Positions 561-10,207 of a stretch of DNA of 10,207 bases are shown piece after piece. Numbering within the stretch: position 1 is the first letter of the stretch; each line of letters starts with the position of its first letter. A model generated the notes under the pieces. It ran no database searches. It had not been told where the DNA came from and was given only the letters and a program-made list of their open reading frames with translations. Position numbers and translations under genes: made by a program. The stretch is from a bacterium (lineage in GTDB: Bacteria; SZUA-182; DTGQ01; JAFGSM01), in NCBI GenBank assembly GCA_049472355.1, contig JBLIRP010000112.1:1-10207 (forward strand), in the 5' to 3' direction.

Positions 561-1052
561 TCACTCCCCCAGGGCCGCTTCTATTGCGCGCCACATGGAC
601 AGGCGTTTCTCATACCCCTCGCCCCCGGCGGAGATGTCAATCCTTCGCTCGGTCGGCGAGACCACCCGCATCCTTATCTGCATGCATCCCTCCGGGATGA
701 GGTCCCCGGCACGGTCGGCCCACTCGATGAGTGATACCCCTTCGCCGAAGAGAAATTCCTCGTATCCGACCCCCATGATTTCTTCCTCGCAGGCAAGCCG
801 ATAAAAATCGAAATGGTATATGGGCAGCCTTCCCTGATATCGATTCATGAGAACAAAGGTGGGGCTGGTGATATACGCCCCTTTCGGCACCCCGAGTCCC
901 CTGCAGATCCCCTGGATCATGCAGGTCTTCCCGGCGCCGAGTTCGCCGAAAAAGGCGACGATATCACCGGGCTGAAGATGCCTCGCGAGAAGTTCCCCCA
1001 CGTTCCCGGTCTGTTCAGGGGACCGGCTCACTACCGCGCAACTGGTCGCCAT
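561..1052 (-). CDS. tsaE: tRNA threonylcarbamoyladenosine (t6A) biosynthesis ATPase TsaE (YjeE)
   Basis: Walker A GELGAGKT plus family motifs ITSPTF, YHFDFYRL and LIEW; 163 aa. The start overlaps the upstream stop (TAATG). Confidence 0.96.
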   Translation of the reverse strand: MATSCAVVSRSPEQTGNVGELLARHLQPGDIVAFFGELGAGKTCMIQGICRGLGVPKGAYITSPTFVLMNRYQGRLPIYHFDFYRLACEEEIMGVGYEEFLFGEGVSLIEWADRAGDLIPEGCMQIRMRVVSPTERRIDISAGGEGYEKRLSMWRAIEAALGE

Positions 1053-1873: not shown

Positions 1874-2290
1874 TCACCCCTTCTGCTCCGGCTCCGGTTG
1901 CGTGGCAATGGCCATATTTTCGATTCCCGCCCTCTTCGCATAATCCATGACCTTCACCACCACCCCATGCCGCGCCATTTCATCCGCATGGATGATCAAA
2001 ACCCGCTCAGCGGACTCCTTGGCCTTGGCCTCGAGCGCCGATTTCAATTCGGAAAGGCGCATCATGGTGTTATTGAGGTAGATGTGCCCCTCCTTGGTTA
2101 TGTGCACCTCGAGCCTGTCTTGCGCCTTGACCACGTCCGAGGATGCCTTGGGCAGCTTCACCTGCAGACCGGGTGTGGATACAAAGCTCGTGGTGAGCAT
2201 GAAGAATATCAGCATCAGGAGCACCACGTCGATCAGACTGACGATATTGATCTCGGGGAGTATGCGATTATTGTTGTCGGAAAAGTTCAT
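1874..2290 (-). CDS. exbD: ExbD/TolR family biopolymer transport protein
   Basis: EINIVSLIDVVLLMLIFFML TM segment with the conserved Asp, VKLPKA, and IHAD...HGVVVKVMD..KRAG C-terminus. ATGA overlap with exbB and SD AGGAGG. Confidence 0.93.
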   Translation of the reverse strand: MNFSDNNNRILPEINIVSLIDVVLLMLIFFMLTTSFVSTPGLQVKLPKASSDVVKAQDRLEVHITKEGHIYLNNTMMRLSELKSALEAKAKESAERVLIIHADEMARHGVVVKVMDYAKRAGIENMAIATQPEPEQKG

Positions 2291-2925
2291 CGCCTTCCTC
2301 CTGCCGACTGCTGGCGCAGCGGCGTGTGCTCTTCGAGTATATCCAGGAGCTCCATCGAGGTGCTCTCCATCTCCAGGATATATGCGTTCGCCTTCTTCAG
2401 GAAGTAGTTGTGCACCACCAGGGTGGGTATGGCGACGATCAGTCCTGCTGCAGTGGTAATCAATGCCTCGGAGATACCCGACGCCAGCGCGGTTGGATGT
2501 CCGACCCCCTGAAGGGAAATGACCTCGAACACCTTTATCATGCCGGTCACGGTCCCCAAAAGCCCGAGAAGGGGCGAGATGATGGCAATGGTGGCGAGCG
2601 GAGCCAGGTACTTATGCAGTTTATCCGCCTCCTTCTTCCCGGCGTGTTCAATAACCTCCTTGATCTGTTCCCGTGCATGGTCCCGTCTCAGGATCCCCGC
2701 CTCCATGATCCGCGCAATCGGCCATGCACTGTTAGAGCAGATGGCCAAGGCCTCCTGGGCCTTGCCCTCATTGAGCACCTTTTTCATCTTTGTGACAAAC
2801 TCCGGCGGGTGCACCCTGACCCCTCTCAGGGAATAGAAACGCTCCAGGGCAATGGCCAGCGCAATCACTGAACAGGCGAGAATGGGAATCATGACAATCC
2901 CGCCCTTGATAAGGTAATCGATCAT
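2287..2925 (-). CDS. exbB: MotA/TolQ/ExbB proton channel family protein
   Basis: Motifs PLLGLLGTVTGMI and GISEALITTAAGLIVAIP, three hydrophobic segments, strong SD (AAGGGGGAG). Confidence 0.94.
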   Translation of the reverse strand: MIDYLIKGGIVMIPILACSVIALAIALERFYSLRGVRVHPPEFVTKMKKVLNEGKAQEALAICSNSAWPIARIMEAGILRRDHAREQIKEVIEHAGKKEADKLHKYLAPLATIAIISPLLGLLGTVTGMIKVFEVISLQGVGHPTALASGISEALITTAAGLIVAIPTLVVHNYFLKKANAYILEMESTSMELLDILEEHTPLRQQSAGGRR

Positions 2926-3021: not shown

Positions 3022-6000
3022 CTATTTTTTCATGGCCTTGACCTTCTTGCCGGCCTGTTCCGCCCAGGTACCCCCCGGCGCGTCGATCGCAATCACCTGA
3101 TTGTAGGCATTGAGGGCCTCCTGACGTTTTCCCTGCATCTCATAGATCTGGCCGATACGATAGTATGCCTTTGCCTGCCATTCCCCGCTCTCCGAATACA
3201 GGTAGACGATCTTCATAAGCTCCAGGACCGCGTTGTCAAAATCCTTGAGCAGGACGTAGGTCTCCGCCAGGTCATAGATGGAGCGAAGCCGGAGGGTGCT
3301 GTCCTTGGCATTTCCCGCCTTGGTGAAGTGCTCCTTGCTCAGCTCATACTCACCCAATTCGGACTGGATCCTGCCGAGGGCATAGTGGGCCCTTGGAACG
3401 ACATGACTTTCGGGAAATTCATCCAGAACCGTCCGGTACATGTCCCGGGCCTTCTTCGTTTCGCCCATGGCGTGCAGGATATCGCCCTTGGCCAGGTAGG
3501 CCTCCGCCGCCTTTCCTTTGGCGTGGGGCTGGGCGATGACCTGATCGAGGCTTTCCAGTGCCTTGGCATGATCACCTTCCGATGCATGCAGCCTCCCCAG
3601 GGCAAGGTAGGCATCGGATGCGATCTCCGCGTCCGGATATCTGAGCAGAATCGTCTTGAGCGTGCCGATGGCCATACGGACATCGCCGGTCTCCTGGTAG
3701 ATCTGCGCCATCTTCTGCAGGGAAAGGGCAGACCATTTCCCCCTGGGGAAGTGGTTTATCAGCCGCTGATACACCTTGAGCGTTTGCGGCCATTCCTTGC
3801 GCGCCTCATAGGTCGTGGCCAGGCGAAAGAGGATGGTTTCTGAAAGGGGGTCCTGCCGGTACCGGTCCCAAAATTCCTCCGCATTTCTGATATACCCCTC
3901 CACATCCCCGAGTTGGTCAAGGCAGAGGATGATCCCGTACTTTGCCTCCTTTACCGAATCGGAGCGCGGGAAGGCATCGATGACATCCCGATACGTACGG
4001 ATGGCCTCCTGGTAGTCACCCAGATTGTACAGGCTGTCCCCCATCTTTACCATGGCCATGGGGACAAACGGGGTATCCGGGTGATGTTCGATGATGCCCC
4101 GGAACTCGTTAAGGGCATCCCTGTACCTGCCCATCATGAAATAGATCCACCCTGCCCTATACCGTGCCTCCGCACCGAGCGGGCTTTCCGGATATTCGGC
4201 GGTGAGCCGGTTCACGAAGGCGATTGCATTGCGTTGATCCTCGAGACGCGCCATCACCAGCACCATGCGGTAGTAAACCTTGTCCATGGCCGGATAGGAG
4301 GGATACTCCCGGATGATACGCTCCAGTGTCTTTTGCGATTCCTTGAACGCCCCTTGGTTATATTGACATTCGGACAAACGAAAGAGCGCCTCGGGTCTCT
4401 TCTCCCCGTGCGGATACTCCTTGATAAACCGCTTGAATTCGCCCTCCGCCCGGGGCCACTCCTCCTGGCTGTAAAAGACCCAGGCAAGCCCGAACCTGGC
4501 CTGCTCCTTGACATCCGCCTGGGGCATATCGAGCACCATCCGATAATCGCCCGCCGCCTTCTCGTATTCCCCCCGCTCAAAATAGGTATTCCCGCGCCAG
4601 TAGAACACCTGATCCCGCATCGCGGAATCCTTAAAAAATTCCATATAGGCCGAAAACGCCTTTATGGCAAGGGAATACTCCTCCTGCCGATAGTAGGTCT
4701 GACCGAGCCTGAAGAGCGCCAACTGGGACAGATCGGGGATGTCGAGGTATTCAGCGGCCTCACGATAGTAGGGGACGGCATCGGCAAATCGCCCCATATT
4801 GTAAAGGGACTCTGCGATCATGAGCACCCCGATCGGTCTCATCTCCCCTCTGGGAAACTGTTGTGTCATGCGGAGCCAGACGGTAATGGCCCGTTCATGC
4901 TCCGAAAGGCGAAAGAGGCACCACCCCTGCCTGAACAAGGCCCTTTCTGCGAGGTGATGTTCCGGGAACCGGTCCGCGGTTTCCCCGAATAAGGCCGCAG
5001 CTTCGGTGAAATCCTGAAGCGAAAAAAGGATGATGCCCCGCAAATAAAGGATGTCGGGAAGGAGTGCACTGTCCTTGAAGCGGTCCTCAAAATCGGGCAG
5101 GAGGTCGTGCGCCTCCTGATACCTTTGCTGGGCATACAGGGACCATGAGAGTCCGTATAGGGCCATGGGGACCCGCGGATGTTCCGGAAATGTCGTGAGA
5201 AACCATTGATATGCAGCCCGGGCGCCCTCGATATCCCCTGCCTGAAAAAGGGACTCCGCCTTCCAGAACGAGGCCTCCGAGATGAGGGGACTTGGCGCGT
5301 ACGTGTGAATAAACAGATCGTACTCCTGTGCCGCATCCTTGTATGATCCCATCGCATAGAGGACGTTTGCGAGCAGAAATTGCGCCTTTTCACGAACAGG
5401 GCTCTGGTAATAACCAAACAAAAGCGCCCTGAAAAGCCGGACCGCCTCTTCATGGTCCCCCTGCCGATCCATGATCCACCCGAGGGAATAGAACGCATAA
5501 TCGGCAAACTCCGACCGCGGCTTGTGCTCGGTGATATACCGGTAATAGAACGAGGCCACATCCCAGTCGCCGGTCTGAAAGGCCGCCTCCGCCGCCCAAT
5601 AGTATGCCTTGCCGAGATAGGGGGATTCCGGATACCGGGTGCCCAACTCCAGGAAGAGATGAAATGCCTCCTTGTAGGCACCCTGTTGATATTTGAACCG
5701 CCCCAGGTCGTAGTACCCCTTGTCTCCCAGGATGGTATGGGAAAATAATTTTTCTATGGGTGAGCCGAATATACAACAGGACGAAGGGGTATCGGGGGCA
5801 ACCGCCTTCTTGTCAGCCGCCGGTGCGAGCGTCTCCTCGTGCCTCGCCTTCTCATCGGGGATATCCTTTATCCCGGTGACCTTCTCCGGGGGGAGGATTT
5901 CCTTTCGTTCCTCCTTTAATTTGAGCACGGAGCGACCGAGCACGATAACCTCCGGCAGTTGGAGAATATCCTCGGCACAGGTTACGGTCCGGGCACCGGC

Positions 6001-6075
6001 AAGCATGACCGCCGCCATACCCATGCAGGTGAAGGCACATGCCAGGATGCGACACCATTTACGGCAATGGCGCAT
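3022..6075 (-). CDS. Very large exported tetratricopeptide-repeat protein (CpoB/BamD-like repeats, ~1017 aa) with N-terminal TonB-box-like peptide
   Basis: Start reassigned from 6144 to ATG 6075 (SD GGGGGAG; MRHCRKWCR n-region, hydrophobic h-region, probable cleavage after TCA). Roughly 24 repeats of ~37 aa of the type YP.S....A.Y.LG..Y...G.Y..A...F (count estimated from length). Confidence 0.9.
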   Translation of the reverse strand: MRHCRKWCRILACAFTCMGMAAVMLAGARTVTCAEDILQLPEVIVLGRSVLKLKEERKEILPPEKVTGIKDIPDEKARHEETLAPAADKKAVAPDTPSSCCIFGSPIEKLFSHTILGDKGYYDLGRFKYQQGAYKEAFHLFLELGTRYPESPYLGKAYYWAAEAAFQTGDWDVASFYYRYITEHKPRSEFADYAFYSLGWIMDRQGDHEEAVRLFRALLFGYYQSPVREKAQFLLANVLYAMGSYKDAAQEYDLFIHTYAPSPLISEASFWKAESLFQAGDIEGARAAYQWFLTTFPEHPRVPMALYGLSWSLYAQQRYQEAHDLLPDFEDRFKDSALLPDILYLRGIILFSLQDFTEAAALFGETADRFPEHHLAERALFRQGWCLFRLSEHERAITVWLRMTQQFPRGEMRPIGVLMIAESLYNMGRFADAVPYYREAAEYLDIPDLSQLALFRLGQTYYRQEEYSLAIKAFSAYMEFFKDSAMRDQVFYWRGNTYFERGEYEKAAGDYRMVLDMPQADVKEQARFGLAWVFYSQEEWPRAEGEFKRFIKEYPHGEKRPEALFRLSECQYNQGAFKESQKTLERIIREYPSYPAMDKVYYRMVLVMARLEDQRNAIAFVNRLTAEYPESPLGAEARYRAGWIYFMMGRYRDALNEFRGIIEHHPDTPFVPMAMVKMGDSLYNLGDYQEAIRTYRDVIDAFPRSDSVKEAKYGIILCLDQLGDVEGYIRNAEEFWDRYRQDPLSETILFRLATTYEARKEWPQTLKVYQRLINHFPRGKWSALSLQKMAQIYQETGDVRMAIGTLKTILLRYPDAEIASDAYLALGRLHASEGDHAKALESLDQVIAQPHAKGKAAEAYLAKGDILHAMGETKKARDMYRTVLDEFPESHVVPRAHYALGRIQSELGEYELSKEHFTKAGNAKDSTLRLRSIYDLAETYVLLKDFDNAVLELMKIVYLYSESGEWQAKAYYRIGQIYEMQGKRQEALNAYNQVIAIDAPGGTWAEQAGKKVKAMKK

Positions 6076-7753: not shown

Positions 7754-7833
7754 TAATCCCTTGTCTGCCGAGCGGATCAAGGATGCAGTGGCAGATAGGG
7801 CATGCGACATTCAATGTAAAATGTGAGGGTTCC

Positions 7834-8349
7834 ATGCCAATATATGAATTTCTTTGCCCTGAGTGCAATCGTATCTTCAGTTTTTTCTCCAAGTCGTTGA
7901 AGGAGACACGCATCCCTCACTGCCCGCGGTGTAAATCCGACCATATGATCAGGCAGATCTCCCTGGTGTCTCCGCTGCGTACCAAGAAAGGAAGACACAA
8001 CGTGGCGGATTCCGCTTCAGATGCGGAAGGCGATGTACCGCGTTCGCACGATCCCGAAGAGGATGCAAAAATGGAGAAGGCCATGAAGGTGCTGGAAAGG
8101 GAGATGGCAGGGATGGACGAGGAGAATCCAAACCCCCGCCAATTGGGCAGGCTCATGCGAAGGATGTCGGAGATGACCGGCGAACCCATGCCCGAGGAAT
8201 TACACGAGGCGGTCAAGAGACTCGAGGCGGGTGAAGACCCCGAAAAGATAGAGGAGGAGATGGGAGACCTGTTCGGTGAAGGAGAATATGGTGACGATTC
8301 GGGGTATGGCTGCGGCCCCACCAGAGATCCCGGGCTCTATGATCTGTAA
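7834..8349 (+). CDS. FmdB-family zinc-ribbon (CxxC-CxxC) putative regulatory protein with acidic helical C-terminal extension
   Basis: Begins MPIYEFLCPEC...CPRC, the typical FmdB start. Start reassigned from 7783 to 7834 with SD GAGG upstream; 171 aa. Confidence 0.88.
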   Translation: MPIYEFLCPECNRIFSFFSKSLKETRIPHCPRCKSDHMIRQISLVSPLRTKKGRHNVADSASDAEGDVPRSHDPEEDAKMEKAMKVLEREMAGMDEENPNPRQLGRLMRRMSEMTGEPMPEELHEAVKRLEAGEDPEKIEEEMGDLFGEGEYGDDSGYGCGPTRDPGLYDL

Positions 8350-8446
8350 CCGCTGAGCAATCCCGAAGGTTTTCCTTAGCCTCAAGGGTAACAAATCAAA
8401 GGTGCGAATCAAAAAAAGGTATACAGAACCTCGCCACCAAGGTCAT

Positions 8447-8496
8447 AAAAAAGCCGCCACAAATCTTTCAAGCAAACGCTATCCTTATGTGGCGGC
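8447..8496 (-). terminator. Intrinsic terminator for the minus-strand CBM48 transcript
   Basis: 9-bp stem GCCGCCACA (8453-8461) / TGTGGCGGC (8488-8496), 26-nt loop, and A6 at 8447-8452 giving a U-tract on the minus strand. Confidence 0.7.
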
Positions 8497-8562
8497 CATT
8501 GTTATCGCCTCGTAAAAAGACCTTATGGAATCGATGGTCAAAGGGGGGTCGTTCCCCTGGTC

Positions 8563-8973
8563 CTATTTTACGATGATCCTTGCATTCTGGGTCCCGAACG
8601 TATTGGGGACCCTCTGAGCGCTCTTGGGGTCATCGCGCCATTCGCCATCCACAAAAAATCTATAGTCGTATACGCCTGGTTTGAGACTAAGGGAGGTTGT
8701 CCATTCTCCATTATTGGTTTTCATCAAACGGGTCGAATCGGTCTTCCAATTATTAAAATCGCCTGCAAGGGACACCTGATGGGCCTCCGGGGCATAATAG
8801 GAAAACTGGATCGATCTGGTCAATGGCTTGTCAGCGGGTTTTGTCGATGATTTTTGAACCGGCTTTGCTGTGGAATAACTTCCTGATTTGGGAGTAGCGT
8901 TGCCCGCTGTTTTGTTCATCGACATGCTCTGGCTTTTTGCAGCCTTGGTGGTGGTTTTAGGTTTGGTAGCCAT
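8563..8973 (-). CDS. Stand-alone glycogen-binding domain protein (CBM48 / AMPK-beta CBM / isoamylase early-set) with Lys/Thr/Ser-rich N-terminal tail
   Basis: Motifs APEAHQVSLAGDFNNW, GEW...L.PG.Y.YRFFVDGEW..DP and NTFG..N; SD AAGGGGG. Confidence 0.9.
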   Translation of the reverse strand: MATKPKTTTKAAKSQSMSMNKTAGNATPKSGSYSTAKPVQKSSTKPADKPLTRSIQFSYYAPEAHQVSLAGDFNNWKTDSTRLMKTNNGEWTTSLSLKPGVYDYRFFVDGEWRDDPKSAQRVPNTFGTQNARIIVK

Positions 8974-9248
8974 CGTACCCCCCTTTTAAAAGGTTAGCGT
9001 AATACAATTAACGAAAACAGACCGGTGAACGATACACCCTCAAACGTTCAGAGCATATAGAAAAACCTGAAAAAAATCAAGTACGCGGTTCATCATTTCA
9101 ATCAAAAAGCACCACGTACGCCAAGCCCTTTTTTGTAACCGCAGACCTTCTAAATTGTTTTTATGTAATTAAGATCCCTGATCTGTTTGCACCCGCGGAT
9201 CGCTTAAAAAGCCGGGGCTGTGTGTGGCCGTAGGCTATATATAATTTT

Positions 9249-9362
9249 GATCCGGCTAACGTGCTGAACTCATTTGTGGCCGAAGGCCACTCATATTGCT
9301 ATTTTGAACGATCCGGTCAAGGGTCCGAACCCGTTTGTGGCCTGAGGCCGTTCATATTGTTA
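9249..9362. repeat. Degenerate ~60-bp tandem repeats directly downstream of tRNA-Ala
   Basis: gatccggctaacgtgctgaactcatttgtggccgaaggccactcatattgcta (from 9249) aligns without gaps to gatccggtcaagggtccgaacccgtttgtggcctgaggccgttcatattgtta (from 9310). A more eroded third copy lies near 9198-9246. Confidence 0.75.
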
Positions 9363-9369
9363 ATAAGGA

Positions 9370-9441
9370 TGGAGGACACGGGATTTGAACCCGTGACTTC
9401 TGCCTTGCGAAGGCAGCGCTCTCCCGCTGAGCTAGTCCCCC
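9370..9441 (-). tRNA. tRNA-Ala (anticodon CGC), CCA not encoded
   Basis: Cloverleaf GGGGGAC-TA-GCTC-AGCGGGA-GAGC-G-CTGCC-TTCGCAA-GGCAG-AAGTC-ACGGG-TTCAAAT-CCCGT-GTCCTCC-A, with the G3:U70 alanine identity pair and discriminator A. Confidence 0.97.
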
Positions 9442-9483
9442 ATATGCACTTACGCGGATATTTCAAAAATTCTTCGACTATTA

Positions 9484-9512
9484 TTAATAACATGGTTTCC
9501 ATGCTGCGTCAA
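9484..9512 (-). promoter_or_regulatory. Probable tRNA promoter
   Basis: TTGACG (9512-9507), 17-nt spacer, TGnTATTAA (-10 at 9489-9484), about 40 nt upstream of the mature tRNA 5' end. Confidence 0.5.
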
Positions 9513-9768
9513 TGCACATCCGTCCCCTTCCCTTCCCACAACGTAAATTGGAGGCTGCCTGCTGAAGAGTCGGAAACATTCCCTGCCCTGCGCTTCATCC
9601 TATCCGATTCAGGGGGACATCTTTCAAAATGTCGTCAGATGTGGTACACTTTGTTTTACAAATCAACGAATTTATGTGAATTTCCAAACCGCTGTGGGTG
9701 TTCCCCCACAGTTGATAAAGTGCGGGCATATGTCCTCTCAGATACATAGAGATCCCCCTCCACACGGT

Positions 9769-10207
9769 ATGATTGTCTGTCCACGGTGCAGCAGGAGCCT
9801 TGACGGCAAGGATATCAATTTCTGTCCCTCCTGCGGAACCAGGGTATCCGATGGTCAGCAGATGGATTCCCCCTCTTTTTCCCCCTCTCCGGACAGGGGA
9901 GACTCTCATCCGGATACACAACCGGCCAGTGCCGGATTCTGGATCAGGATGCTCGCATTCTGGCTGGATGCACTGGTCATTCTCTCAATCGCCATTATCA
10001 TTGGAAGCCTTACCTATTCGACCTTTATCGGAAAGGCGCTCTTTCCCAACCGGGATAAGGCGTGCCTCTTTTTCACCATCCTGTTCATCATGTACCACGC
10101 CCTCTTCCTGGGCAGGTTCAGGACAACCCCGGGTAAGCGTTTTTTCGGGCTTGCCGTTTCGCCGATGAACCCTTCCCGTTGGTTCGGTTATTCAGACGCC
10201 TTTCTCA
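9769..10207 (+). CDS. RDD-family membrane protein with N-terminal zinc ribbon (3' truncated by window edge)
   Basis: My translation: MIVCPRCSRSLDGKDINFCPSCGTRV...ASAGFWIRMLAFWLDALVI...YHALFLGRFRTTPGKRFFGLAV, showing the RDD motifs AGFWxR..A...D and TPGK...GL.V. In-frame alternative ATG at 9730. Absent from the ORF track because there is no stop in the window. Confidence 0.88.
   Translation, partial: MIVCPRCSRSLDGKDINFCPSCGTRVSDGQQMDSPSFSPSPDRGDSHPDTQPASAGFWIRMLAFWLDALVILSIAIIIGSLTYSTFIGKALFPNRDKACLFFTILFIMYHALFLGRFRTTPGKRFFGLAVSPMNPSRWFGYSDAFL

Follow-up and report, generated by a model that had tools for sequence, protein, structure and literature searches.

The locus examined here raises the question of what a TonB-box-like peptide is doing at the mature N-terminus of a large protein built of TPR repeats, and whether the TonB encoded beside it could pull on a solenoid in place of a receptor plug. 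The window (the whole stretch of 10,207 nucleotides that we analyzed, C16:1-10207) comes from an 87.5%-complete genome. Its minus strand carries closely spaced genes for two TPR proteins (TPR-A and TPR-B), ExbB, ExbD and a TonB-like protein, followed by tsaE (Table 1). By analogy with partners of known Ton and Tol motors, we lean toward the view that LPEVIVLG serves as a TonB box on TPR-B, which we predict to be a TPR solenoid of the periplasm, and that the operon TonB would pair with it and pull it.

The operon and the N-terminus of TPR-B

The operon encodes the parts of a 5:2 motor of the Ton/Tol type: ExbB, ExbD with its transmembrane Asp, and a transducer with S-x-x-x-H in the transmembrane helix and a TonB_C domain (27.6 bits, cut-off 24.6). 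No barrel gene lies within the TPR-TPR-exbB-exbD-tonB operon, and PF00593 has no match within the window. The tsaE gene is found 3' of the operon in the host phylum, but not in Tectomicrobia/Nitrospinota-like loci, and is probably outside the machine. Metatranscriptome assemblies (two runs, one study) include contigs that cover parts of the operon, one of them spanning exbB-exbD-tonB at about 93% identity, although contigs of this kind cannot show transcription. The box is covered by none of the RNA pieces listed from those two runs.

Elsewhere in the window, an element of ~35 bp occurs by eye as two imperfect direct copies 3' of tsaE (456-560). Positions 7783-10206 hold an FmdB zinc-ribbon gene, genes for a CBM48 protein and an RDD protein, and a tRNA-Ala(CGC) at 9367-9442; the FmdB and CBM48 genes keep their position within the same family only. 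A promoter and terminator scan returned nothing informative.

Table 1. Features of the operon, in window coordinates.
Feature	Position	Strand	Remark
TPR-A, TPR protein of 528 aa	6059..7645	-	conserved partner gene 5' of TPR-B
TPR-B, 1017 aa: leader and about 24 TPR units, plug and barrel absent	3022..6075	-	
Predicted Sec signal peptide of TPR-B, Met 6075 to T-C-A	5974..6075	-	by eye and hydropathy across orthologues
LPEVIVLG, TonB-box-like motif, mature residues 6-13 of TPR-B	5935..5958	-	
Extended leader	5779..5934	-	near-fixed length, K and P positions conserved
Conserved C-x-F-G motif and short helix preceding the first TPR	5725..5778	-	
Motor subunit, ExbB/TolQ family	2287..2925	-	
Motor subunit, ExbD/TolR family	1874..2290	-	transmembrane Asp (SLID)
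TonB-like transducer, 270 aa	1052..1864	-	dedicated; TM helix with S-x-x-x-H, Pro-rich linker, TonB_C
tsaE	561..1052	-	housekeeping gene

The start of TPR-B is most likely the ATG at 6075, with GGGGGAG upstream, for a length of 1017 aa. Bases 5958-5935 of the minus strand encode LPEVIVLG, preceded by a hydrophobic stretch and T-C-A/E-D-I-L-Q (the slash marks the predicted cleavage), and the box therefore occupies mature residues 6-13. The cleavage site was judged by eye and by comparison with 21 orthologues and one barrel, 22 proteins in total, in all of which a hydrophobic 12-mer ends 11-35 residues ahead of the box. A lipoprotein reading was rejected, the lipobox pattern being found in only 2 of the 23 N-termini. 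By sequence likeness and position, an N-terminal TonB box behind a signal peptide is present in TPR-B, as the sequence-only reading of this DNA had proposed.

In the 39-row full-length alignment, information content per column averages 2.71 bits in the box, 1.95 in the TPRs and 1.63 in the linker, and by this measure the eight residues rank 62nd of 977 alignment windows. A strict regular expression for the box matches 29 of the 39 rows. Of the other ten, three belong to close relatives with LP[ED][IV]IA[IV]G and two have VPEVV[FI]N; two are truncated or frameshifted, in one a long N-terminus runs beyond the scanned range, and two are of the Methylomirabilota type. The box expression, composed after the motif was seen, has 8 matches among the 3174 ORFs of at least 200 aa in the genome. 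Three of these fall within the first 90 residues, in a plugged BtuB-like receptor, TPR-B and SurE; the SurE match is due to chance. The box of the genome's own plugged receptor (LPEVVVTA) is akin to that of TPR-B, which aligns over 13 profile columns with the TonB boxes of plugged receptors from this phylum.

The box heads a leader span of ~95 residues. The part behind it, first described as a charged and Pro-rich linker of about 55 aa, is an extended segment and not featureless: in the 21 aligned leaders the spacing is near fixed, K and P positions are conserved, and C-x-F-G and a short helix stand ahead of the first TPR. The Cys of C-x-F-G (often Cys-Cys; window 5778-5725) is among the best-conserved columns.

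The claim that only TPR repeats follow is borne out by an AlphaFold2 model of the mature protein (984 aa, 39-row alignment, mean pLDDT 88.9), which is strandless, with 51 helices that begin at residue 75, and by Pfam, where the best 25 of 46 matches are TPR-like helical-repeat families. A 22-stranded β-barrel is thus absent from the model. The plug domain is absent from TPR-B as well, given a model without strands and a box-less leader unlike receptor N-termini. Searching with the full model returned generic TPR solenoids only (TM-score 0.30 or less by query).

Residues 1-16, which include the box, have pLDDT below 50 in the full-length model, and the box may be free there, at this low confidence. 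Residues 21-40 reach 72-77 in the full model vs 57-63 for the leader alone (21-row alignment), a comparison read from pLDDT alone, across two different alignments and without coordinates. These values suggest that the linker lies on the solenoid. Folded by itself, the leader has no domain (pTM 0.28).

Distribution of the box and of the operon TonB

Relatives were gathered by a single-protein search and an exhaustive search (10 matches). The leader profile finds one locus each in 18 of the 20 phylum genomes, including all 11 of high quality, a count that is partly circular as these same genomes supplied 15 of the 21 profile rows. Applied to a large protein set (7996 candidates scored), it has 57 matches, with TPR families in 56 and barrel families in none; their source names include Tectomicrobia and Nitrospinae. 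A single-protein search of this large protein set with residues 30-200 gave no match, an ESM Atlas search gave no usable match, and genome-collection scans with the leader alignment and with P0006 found nothing. An ExbB scan was set aside, its matches being mostly unrelated Gemmatimonadota loci.

Gene order is conserved along with the box. Sixteen phylum loci were fetched, and exbB is directly 3' of TPR-B in 11 of the 12 with downstream sequence; exbB-exbD-tonB of the twelfth genome (G006) is on another contig. The order TPR-A, box-TPR, exbB, exbD, tonB also occurs, with no barrel gene, in L090, L093-L096, L102, L108, L111, L112, L117, L118 and L168-L170. Some loci have features of their own. 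The leader of G019 has a frameshift about 30 codons past the box, between leader start and TPR body (L033:2757-5928), which may be an assembly error. TPR-A and TPR-B of G025 form one frame of 1466+ aa across an N run at the expected box site (L037:2-4402), followed by a TonB of the operon subfamily. An additional large TPR gene, in two frames, lies 3' of tsaE in G016 (L031:10189-13548).

The box is conserved among proteins only 21-30% identical, from several phylum-level groups. This makes it very improbable that the motif arose by chance or survives without function from a barrel gene since deleted, even counting the possibly artifactual frameshift in the G019 leader as a sign of decay.

The C-terminal domains of the operon TonBs form a distinct subfamily, of which 18 of the 20 phylum genomes have a single strong copy each. 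A 41-row tree places 24 operon TonBs on one side of a branch supported at 99/94, apart from the genome's other TonB and from TolA (the TolA row is 37% filled). In a second phylum the leader is found in 6 of 17 genomes. Operon-type TonB is present in five of these six (94-135 bits), the sixth leader being on a 3.3-kb contig, and in none of the 11 genomes without the leader (all at or below 40 bits; completeness not given).

The Methylomirabilota have the TPR pair without the box. The N-terminal part of TPR-B is matched in 32 of 61 sampled genomes, and the pair is orthologous by end-specific profiles in 4/4 pairs tested for both TPR genes. We examined 28 of the 30 returned loci (the genomes G120 and G091, flagged as unpublished, were omitted, yet are counted in the tallies of 61). 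The box occurs in 0/28 N-termini, and the 27 in view read P-P-P-D-L-like at the box site. The best score of the TonB subfamily in the 61 genomes (completeness not given) is 47 bits, and 10 of the top-scoring Methylomirabilota TonB matches fall outside the operon group in the tree (99/94). No exbB or exbD was found in nine stretches around eight of the loci; one locus has a generic TonB and a receptor about 8 kb off. An ExbB/TolQ is encoded once elsewhere in each of the five genomes tested. The leaders in L210-L238, where the TPR pair has no adjoining motor genes, are very proline-rich, of the same length and with a conserved Cys.

Comparison across relatives thus upholds two expectations of the sequence-only reading, conservation of LPEVxVxG and co-occurrence with this tonB: none of the 21 aligned leaders departs from P and G, L and V stand at 90% or more, and the box tracks one TonB subfamily and is absent where that TonB was not found. 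The co-loss in Methylomirabilota amounts to one event in one clade. It is supporting rather than decisive, because a single clade is involved, completeness is not given and the leader is not detectably homologous to the operon leader by profile (probability 1.5). The proline variant of this clade is a ready-made negative control; L8P in the BtuB box has been described as disrupting the TonB complex (PMC5413942).

These results also bear on an alternative in which the strand is static, binding TPR-A, TPR-B itself or another β-sheet, and resembles a TonB box in looks only. TPR-A accompanies TPR-B in every locus long enough to show both, and L-P-E-V-V motifs can arise by chance, as in SurE. However, it is the box that has low confidence in the full-length model and not the residues behind it, and the box is lost in Methylomirabilota, where TPR-A persists and the TonB was not found. 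We consider a static role unlikely.

PF01618 has a single match in this genome, the ExbB of the window, and likewise one in a 97%-complete congener (G001); four other relatives have 3-7. The genome also encodes tolA-tolB-pal-cpoB without adjoining tolQR (G000:C70:10409-14151, L161) and a stand-alone TonB (C116:49571-50326). The single ExbB motor may therefore drive three transducers, i.e., TolA, the stand-alone TonB and the operon TonB. A reading of the operon as a Tol-Pal substitute was rejected for this variant, tolA-tolB-pal-cpoB being present.

The two other TonB-fold proteins of the genome could bind the same strand. TPR-B could work within Tol-Pal and be pulled, like TolB, by TolA (or by the stand-alone TonB); an oversized CpoB would be one such case. 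The same strand addition joins TolA and TolB (PMC7391070, PMC12905483), the Tol genes have no adjoining tolQR in a genome where one ExbB/TolQ was found, and the TPR-B repeats score above the YbgF cut-off. A normal CpoB-like gene (278 aa) and TolB are, however, already in the genome, and the box tracks the operon TonB: in the five Methylomirabilota genomes with ExbB/TolQ elsewhere, it is absent. This role for TPR-B seems rather improbable.

Plug-less barrels and the search for a barrel partner

A similar pair of TPR protein and plug-less barrel occurs in Bacteroides. We identified such pairs beside Ton genes in other lineages. L114, from a record labelled Bacteroidota, encodes a 1039-aa TPR protein, a 540-aa barrel whose N-terminus starts LELPEFVITG, a SPOR protein and a TonB that groups with the operon TonBs in the tree, on a branch flagged as long. 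L265 has the order TPR-barrel-exbB-exbD-tonB, and its TonB is outside the operon group. L113 (Latescibacterota) fuses TPR, box and barrel in one chain, and operon-type TonB was not found in its genome. The fusion has 1430 aa (L113:9914-14206), with the box-like segment internal.

The leader of TPR-B resembles the N-terminus of the plug-less barrel, a protein of the same operon slot in these lineages, a likeness that the sequence-only reading had overlooked. In the L114 genome, the sole match of the leader profile at E<=1 is the N-terminus of the plug-less barrel (E 0.088 among 21 scored candidates). At this threshold the profile does not match the box inside the L113 fusion. In profile comparisons the leader aligns with barrel N-termini over 26 columns (probability 86; 84-89 across comparisons) and with the N-termini of 11 plugged receptors over 13 columns (probability 48; 48-62 across comparisons). 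The match to barrels rests mainly on the box, because it vanishes once the box is removed (probability 2.2 for barrel and 0.2 for receptor N-termini). The first repeats of TPR-A have their best match in the first repeats of the L113, L039 and L040 TPRs, and the L114 TPR is not among the best matches. No solved relative of the plug-less barrel was found at E<0.01.

The best reading of these likenesses is that the operon is a barrel-less variant of a machine made of a TPR protein, a plug-less barrel and a Ton system; the origin that leader and barrel would share is suggested by about 26 aligned columns. The box-bearing N-terminus of the barrel may have moved onto a second TPR protein.

It could also be that the receptor is split, with the leader supplied in trans to an outer-membrane barrel encoded elsewhere, as its small plug or tether, so that the motor still works a channel. 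The likeness to plug-less barrel N-termini and the fusion of TPR, box and barrel in L113 are consistent with this. In addition, the genome holds three candidate outer-membrane proteins (329-410 aa) without Pfam match, and a FecR-TPR-barrel protein. The latter (G000:C81:10091-15756, L336; 1121 aa) adjoins a CHASE2 adenylate/guanylate cyclase, which points away from a role here.

We searched for such a barrel with a profile of 42 rows, whose full-length matches in G044 and G045 are training rows. Its sensitivity is limited, because the divergent, untrained L265 barrel is seen by its last strands only. In the 20 genomes of the host phylum, the 17 of the second phylum and G042-G043, its matches are confined to C-terminal strands. 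Among 34 matching proteins checked, 26 have Plug over the cut-off, one retains a cut Plug tail, and locus ends or frame breaks interrupt the other seven (one further match had no locus). Five of the seven score 147-201 bits with PF00593 vs 0-32 in the three plug-less barrels. In the window's genome and in the 97%-complete congener, the single match is the plugged BtuB-like receptor, and no plug-less barrel was found genome-wide with this profile of limited sensitivity, which a divergent barrel could escape. A split receptor therefore also appears unlikely.

Proposed mechanism and comparison with known systems

The box of a receptor pairs with TonB as a parallel strand, and the plug that follows the box unfolds under force; binding of a BtuB peptide (residues 5-14) has been measured at 9.4 uM (PMC5413942). 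The N-terminus of soluble TolB is added to TolA as a strand in like manner (PMC7391070, PMC12905483). A free box, an ordered segment behind it and a dedicated TonB would, we are inclined to think, fit the same pulling logic with a solenoid as client. The operon TonB, powered by ExbB-ExbD, would add the box as a β-strand to its own C-terminal domain, a pairing we infer from the analogy with BtuB-TonB and TolB-TolA, and would then pull. The ~50 residues behind the box would lie along the solenoid and be peeled off, much as part of the receptor plug behind the box is unfolded. Peeling might uncover or open a groove to which TPR-A or an envelope protein could bind. The operon may have a housekeeping role in the envelope, because it is single copy and has housekeeping neighbors such as tsaE.

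A bolder version of this proposal, which we offer tentatively and consider doubtful, is that the dedicated TonB strips the leader from the groove of a self-plugged TPR solenoid. TPR-B would then be a third kind of client, channel-less, loading or releasing envelope cargo by proton-motive force, and would have arisen when a solenoid took the place of a plug-less barrel behind an unchanged handle. If true, the handle and TPR scaffold, and not the pore, would be the working core of the barrel-bearing system. The ~15-residue peptide and the ~95-residue domain are small and soluble, so that the key claim is testable in vitro despite uncultured hosts.

The operon shares its motor, a TonB_C transducer and a box-like strand at mature residues 6-13 with the Ton system of BtuB and FhuA. 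It differs in that TPR-B is all-helical in the model and lacks plug and barrel, the operon has no transporter gene, and its TonB belongs to a separate subfamily in the tree. The client in Tol-Pal, TolB, is likewise soluble and periplasmic, and its N-terminal strand is free (PMC7391070). TPR-B, however, is a solenoid of ~24 TPR units and TolB a Rossmann-propeller protein: the TolB_N domain and the β-propeller are absent from the TPR-B model, Pal is absent from the operon, and the real tolB is elsewhere in the genome. The score of TPR-B with the CpoB/YbgF model (TIGR02795; 378.8 bits over 11 stretches, cut-off 90.1) reflects repeat number. CpoB/YbgF is short, with a coiled coil and three TPRs, and is encoded beside pal, whereas TPR-B has 1017 aa and scores 183/383 with PRK10803; a separate cpoB-like gene adjoins pal in the genome. 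By the features tested, TPR-B is not a TonB-dependent transporter, TolB or CpoB.

The Agl-Glt gliding transducer has a TolQR-like motor. In Myxococcus, a structural model places the TonB-CTD-like domains of GltG and GltJ on GltD, a large TPR protein of the periplasm, and the word 'box' is absent from that paper (PMC11761067). GltE and GltC models score far under their cut-offs on TPR-B (40/225 and 30/450), and other glt-like genes were not seen in the operon. TPR genes also occur beside motor-vWA transducers, a different system (PMC12204202). The principle of a non-receptor client is not new, TolB and (as a model only) GltD being precedents. The label of non-canonical TonB client, as proposed for TPR-B, thus has to be qualified on both counts.

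A further parallel is offered by the uncharacterized operons with a TPR protein, a plug-less barrel and a Ton system (L113, L114 and L265). These too have the TPR gene first and then the box-bearing gene, followed by exbB-exbD-tonB in L265 and SPOR-tonB in L114, and their N-terminal box segment is similar. The TonB of L114 is in the operon subfamily and that of L265 is not, and homology beyond the box is not significant. Here, a second TPR solenoid fills the barrel slot. The comparison suggests that the barrel is replaceable, with handle, TPR protein and motor kept. A barrel-less operon also echoes the proposed origin of TolB from an outer-membrane protein by barrel loss (PMC12204202).

In the literature searched, with most subscription papers outside it, we found no account of a TPR protein that carries a TonB box, nor of such an operon. 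The reviews consulted name two kinds of partner: TonB works on plugged transporters, and TolA on TolB (PMC12905483, PMC7391070). A box on a solenoid of ~1,000 residues, in a conserved single-copy operon, would add a third kind of partner.
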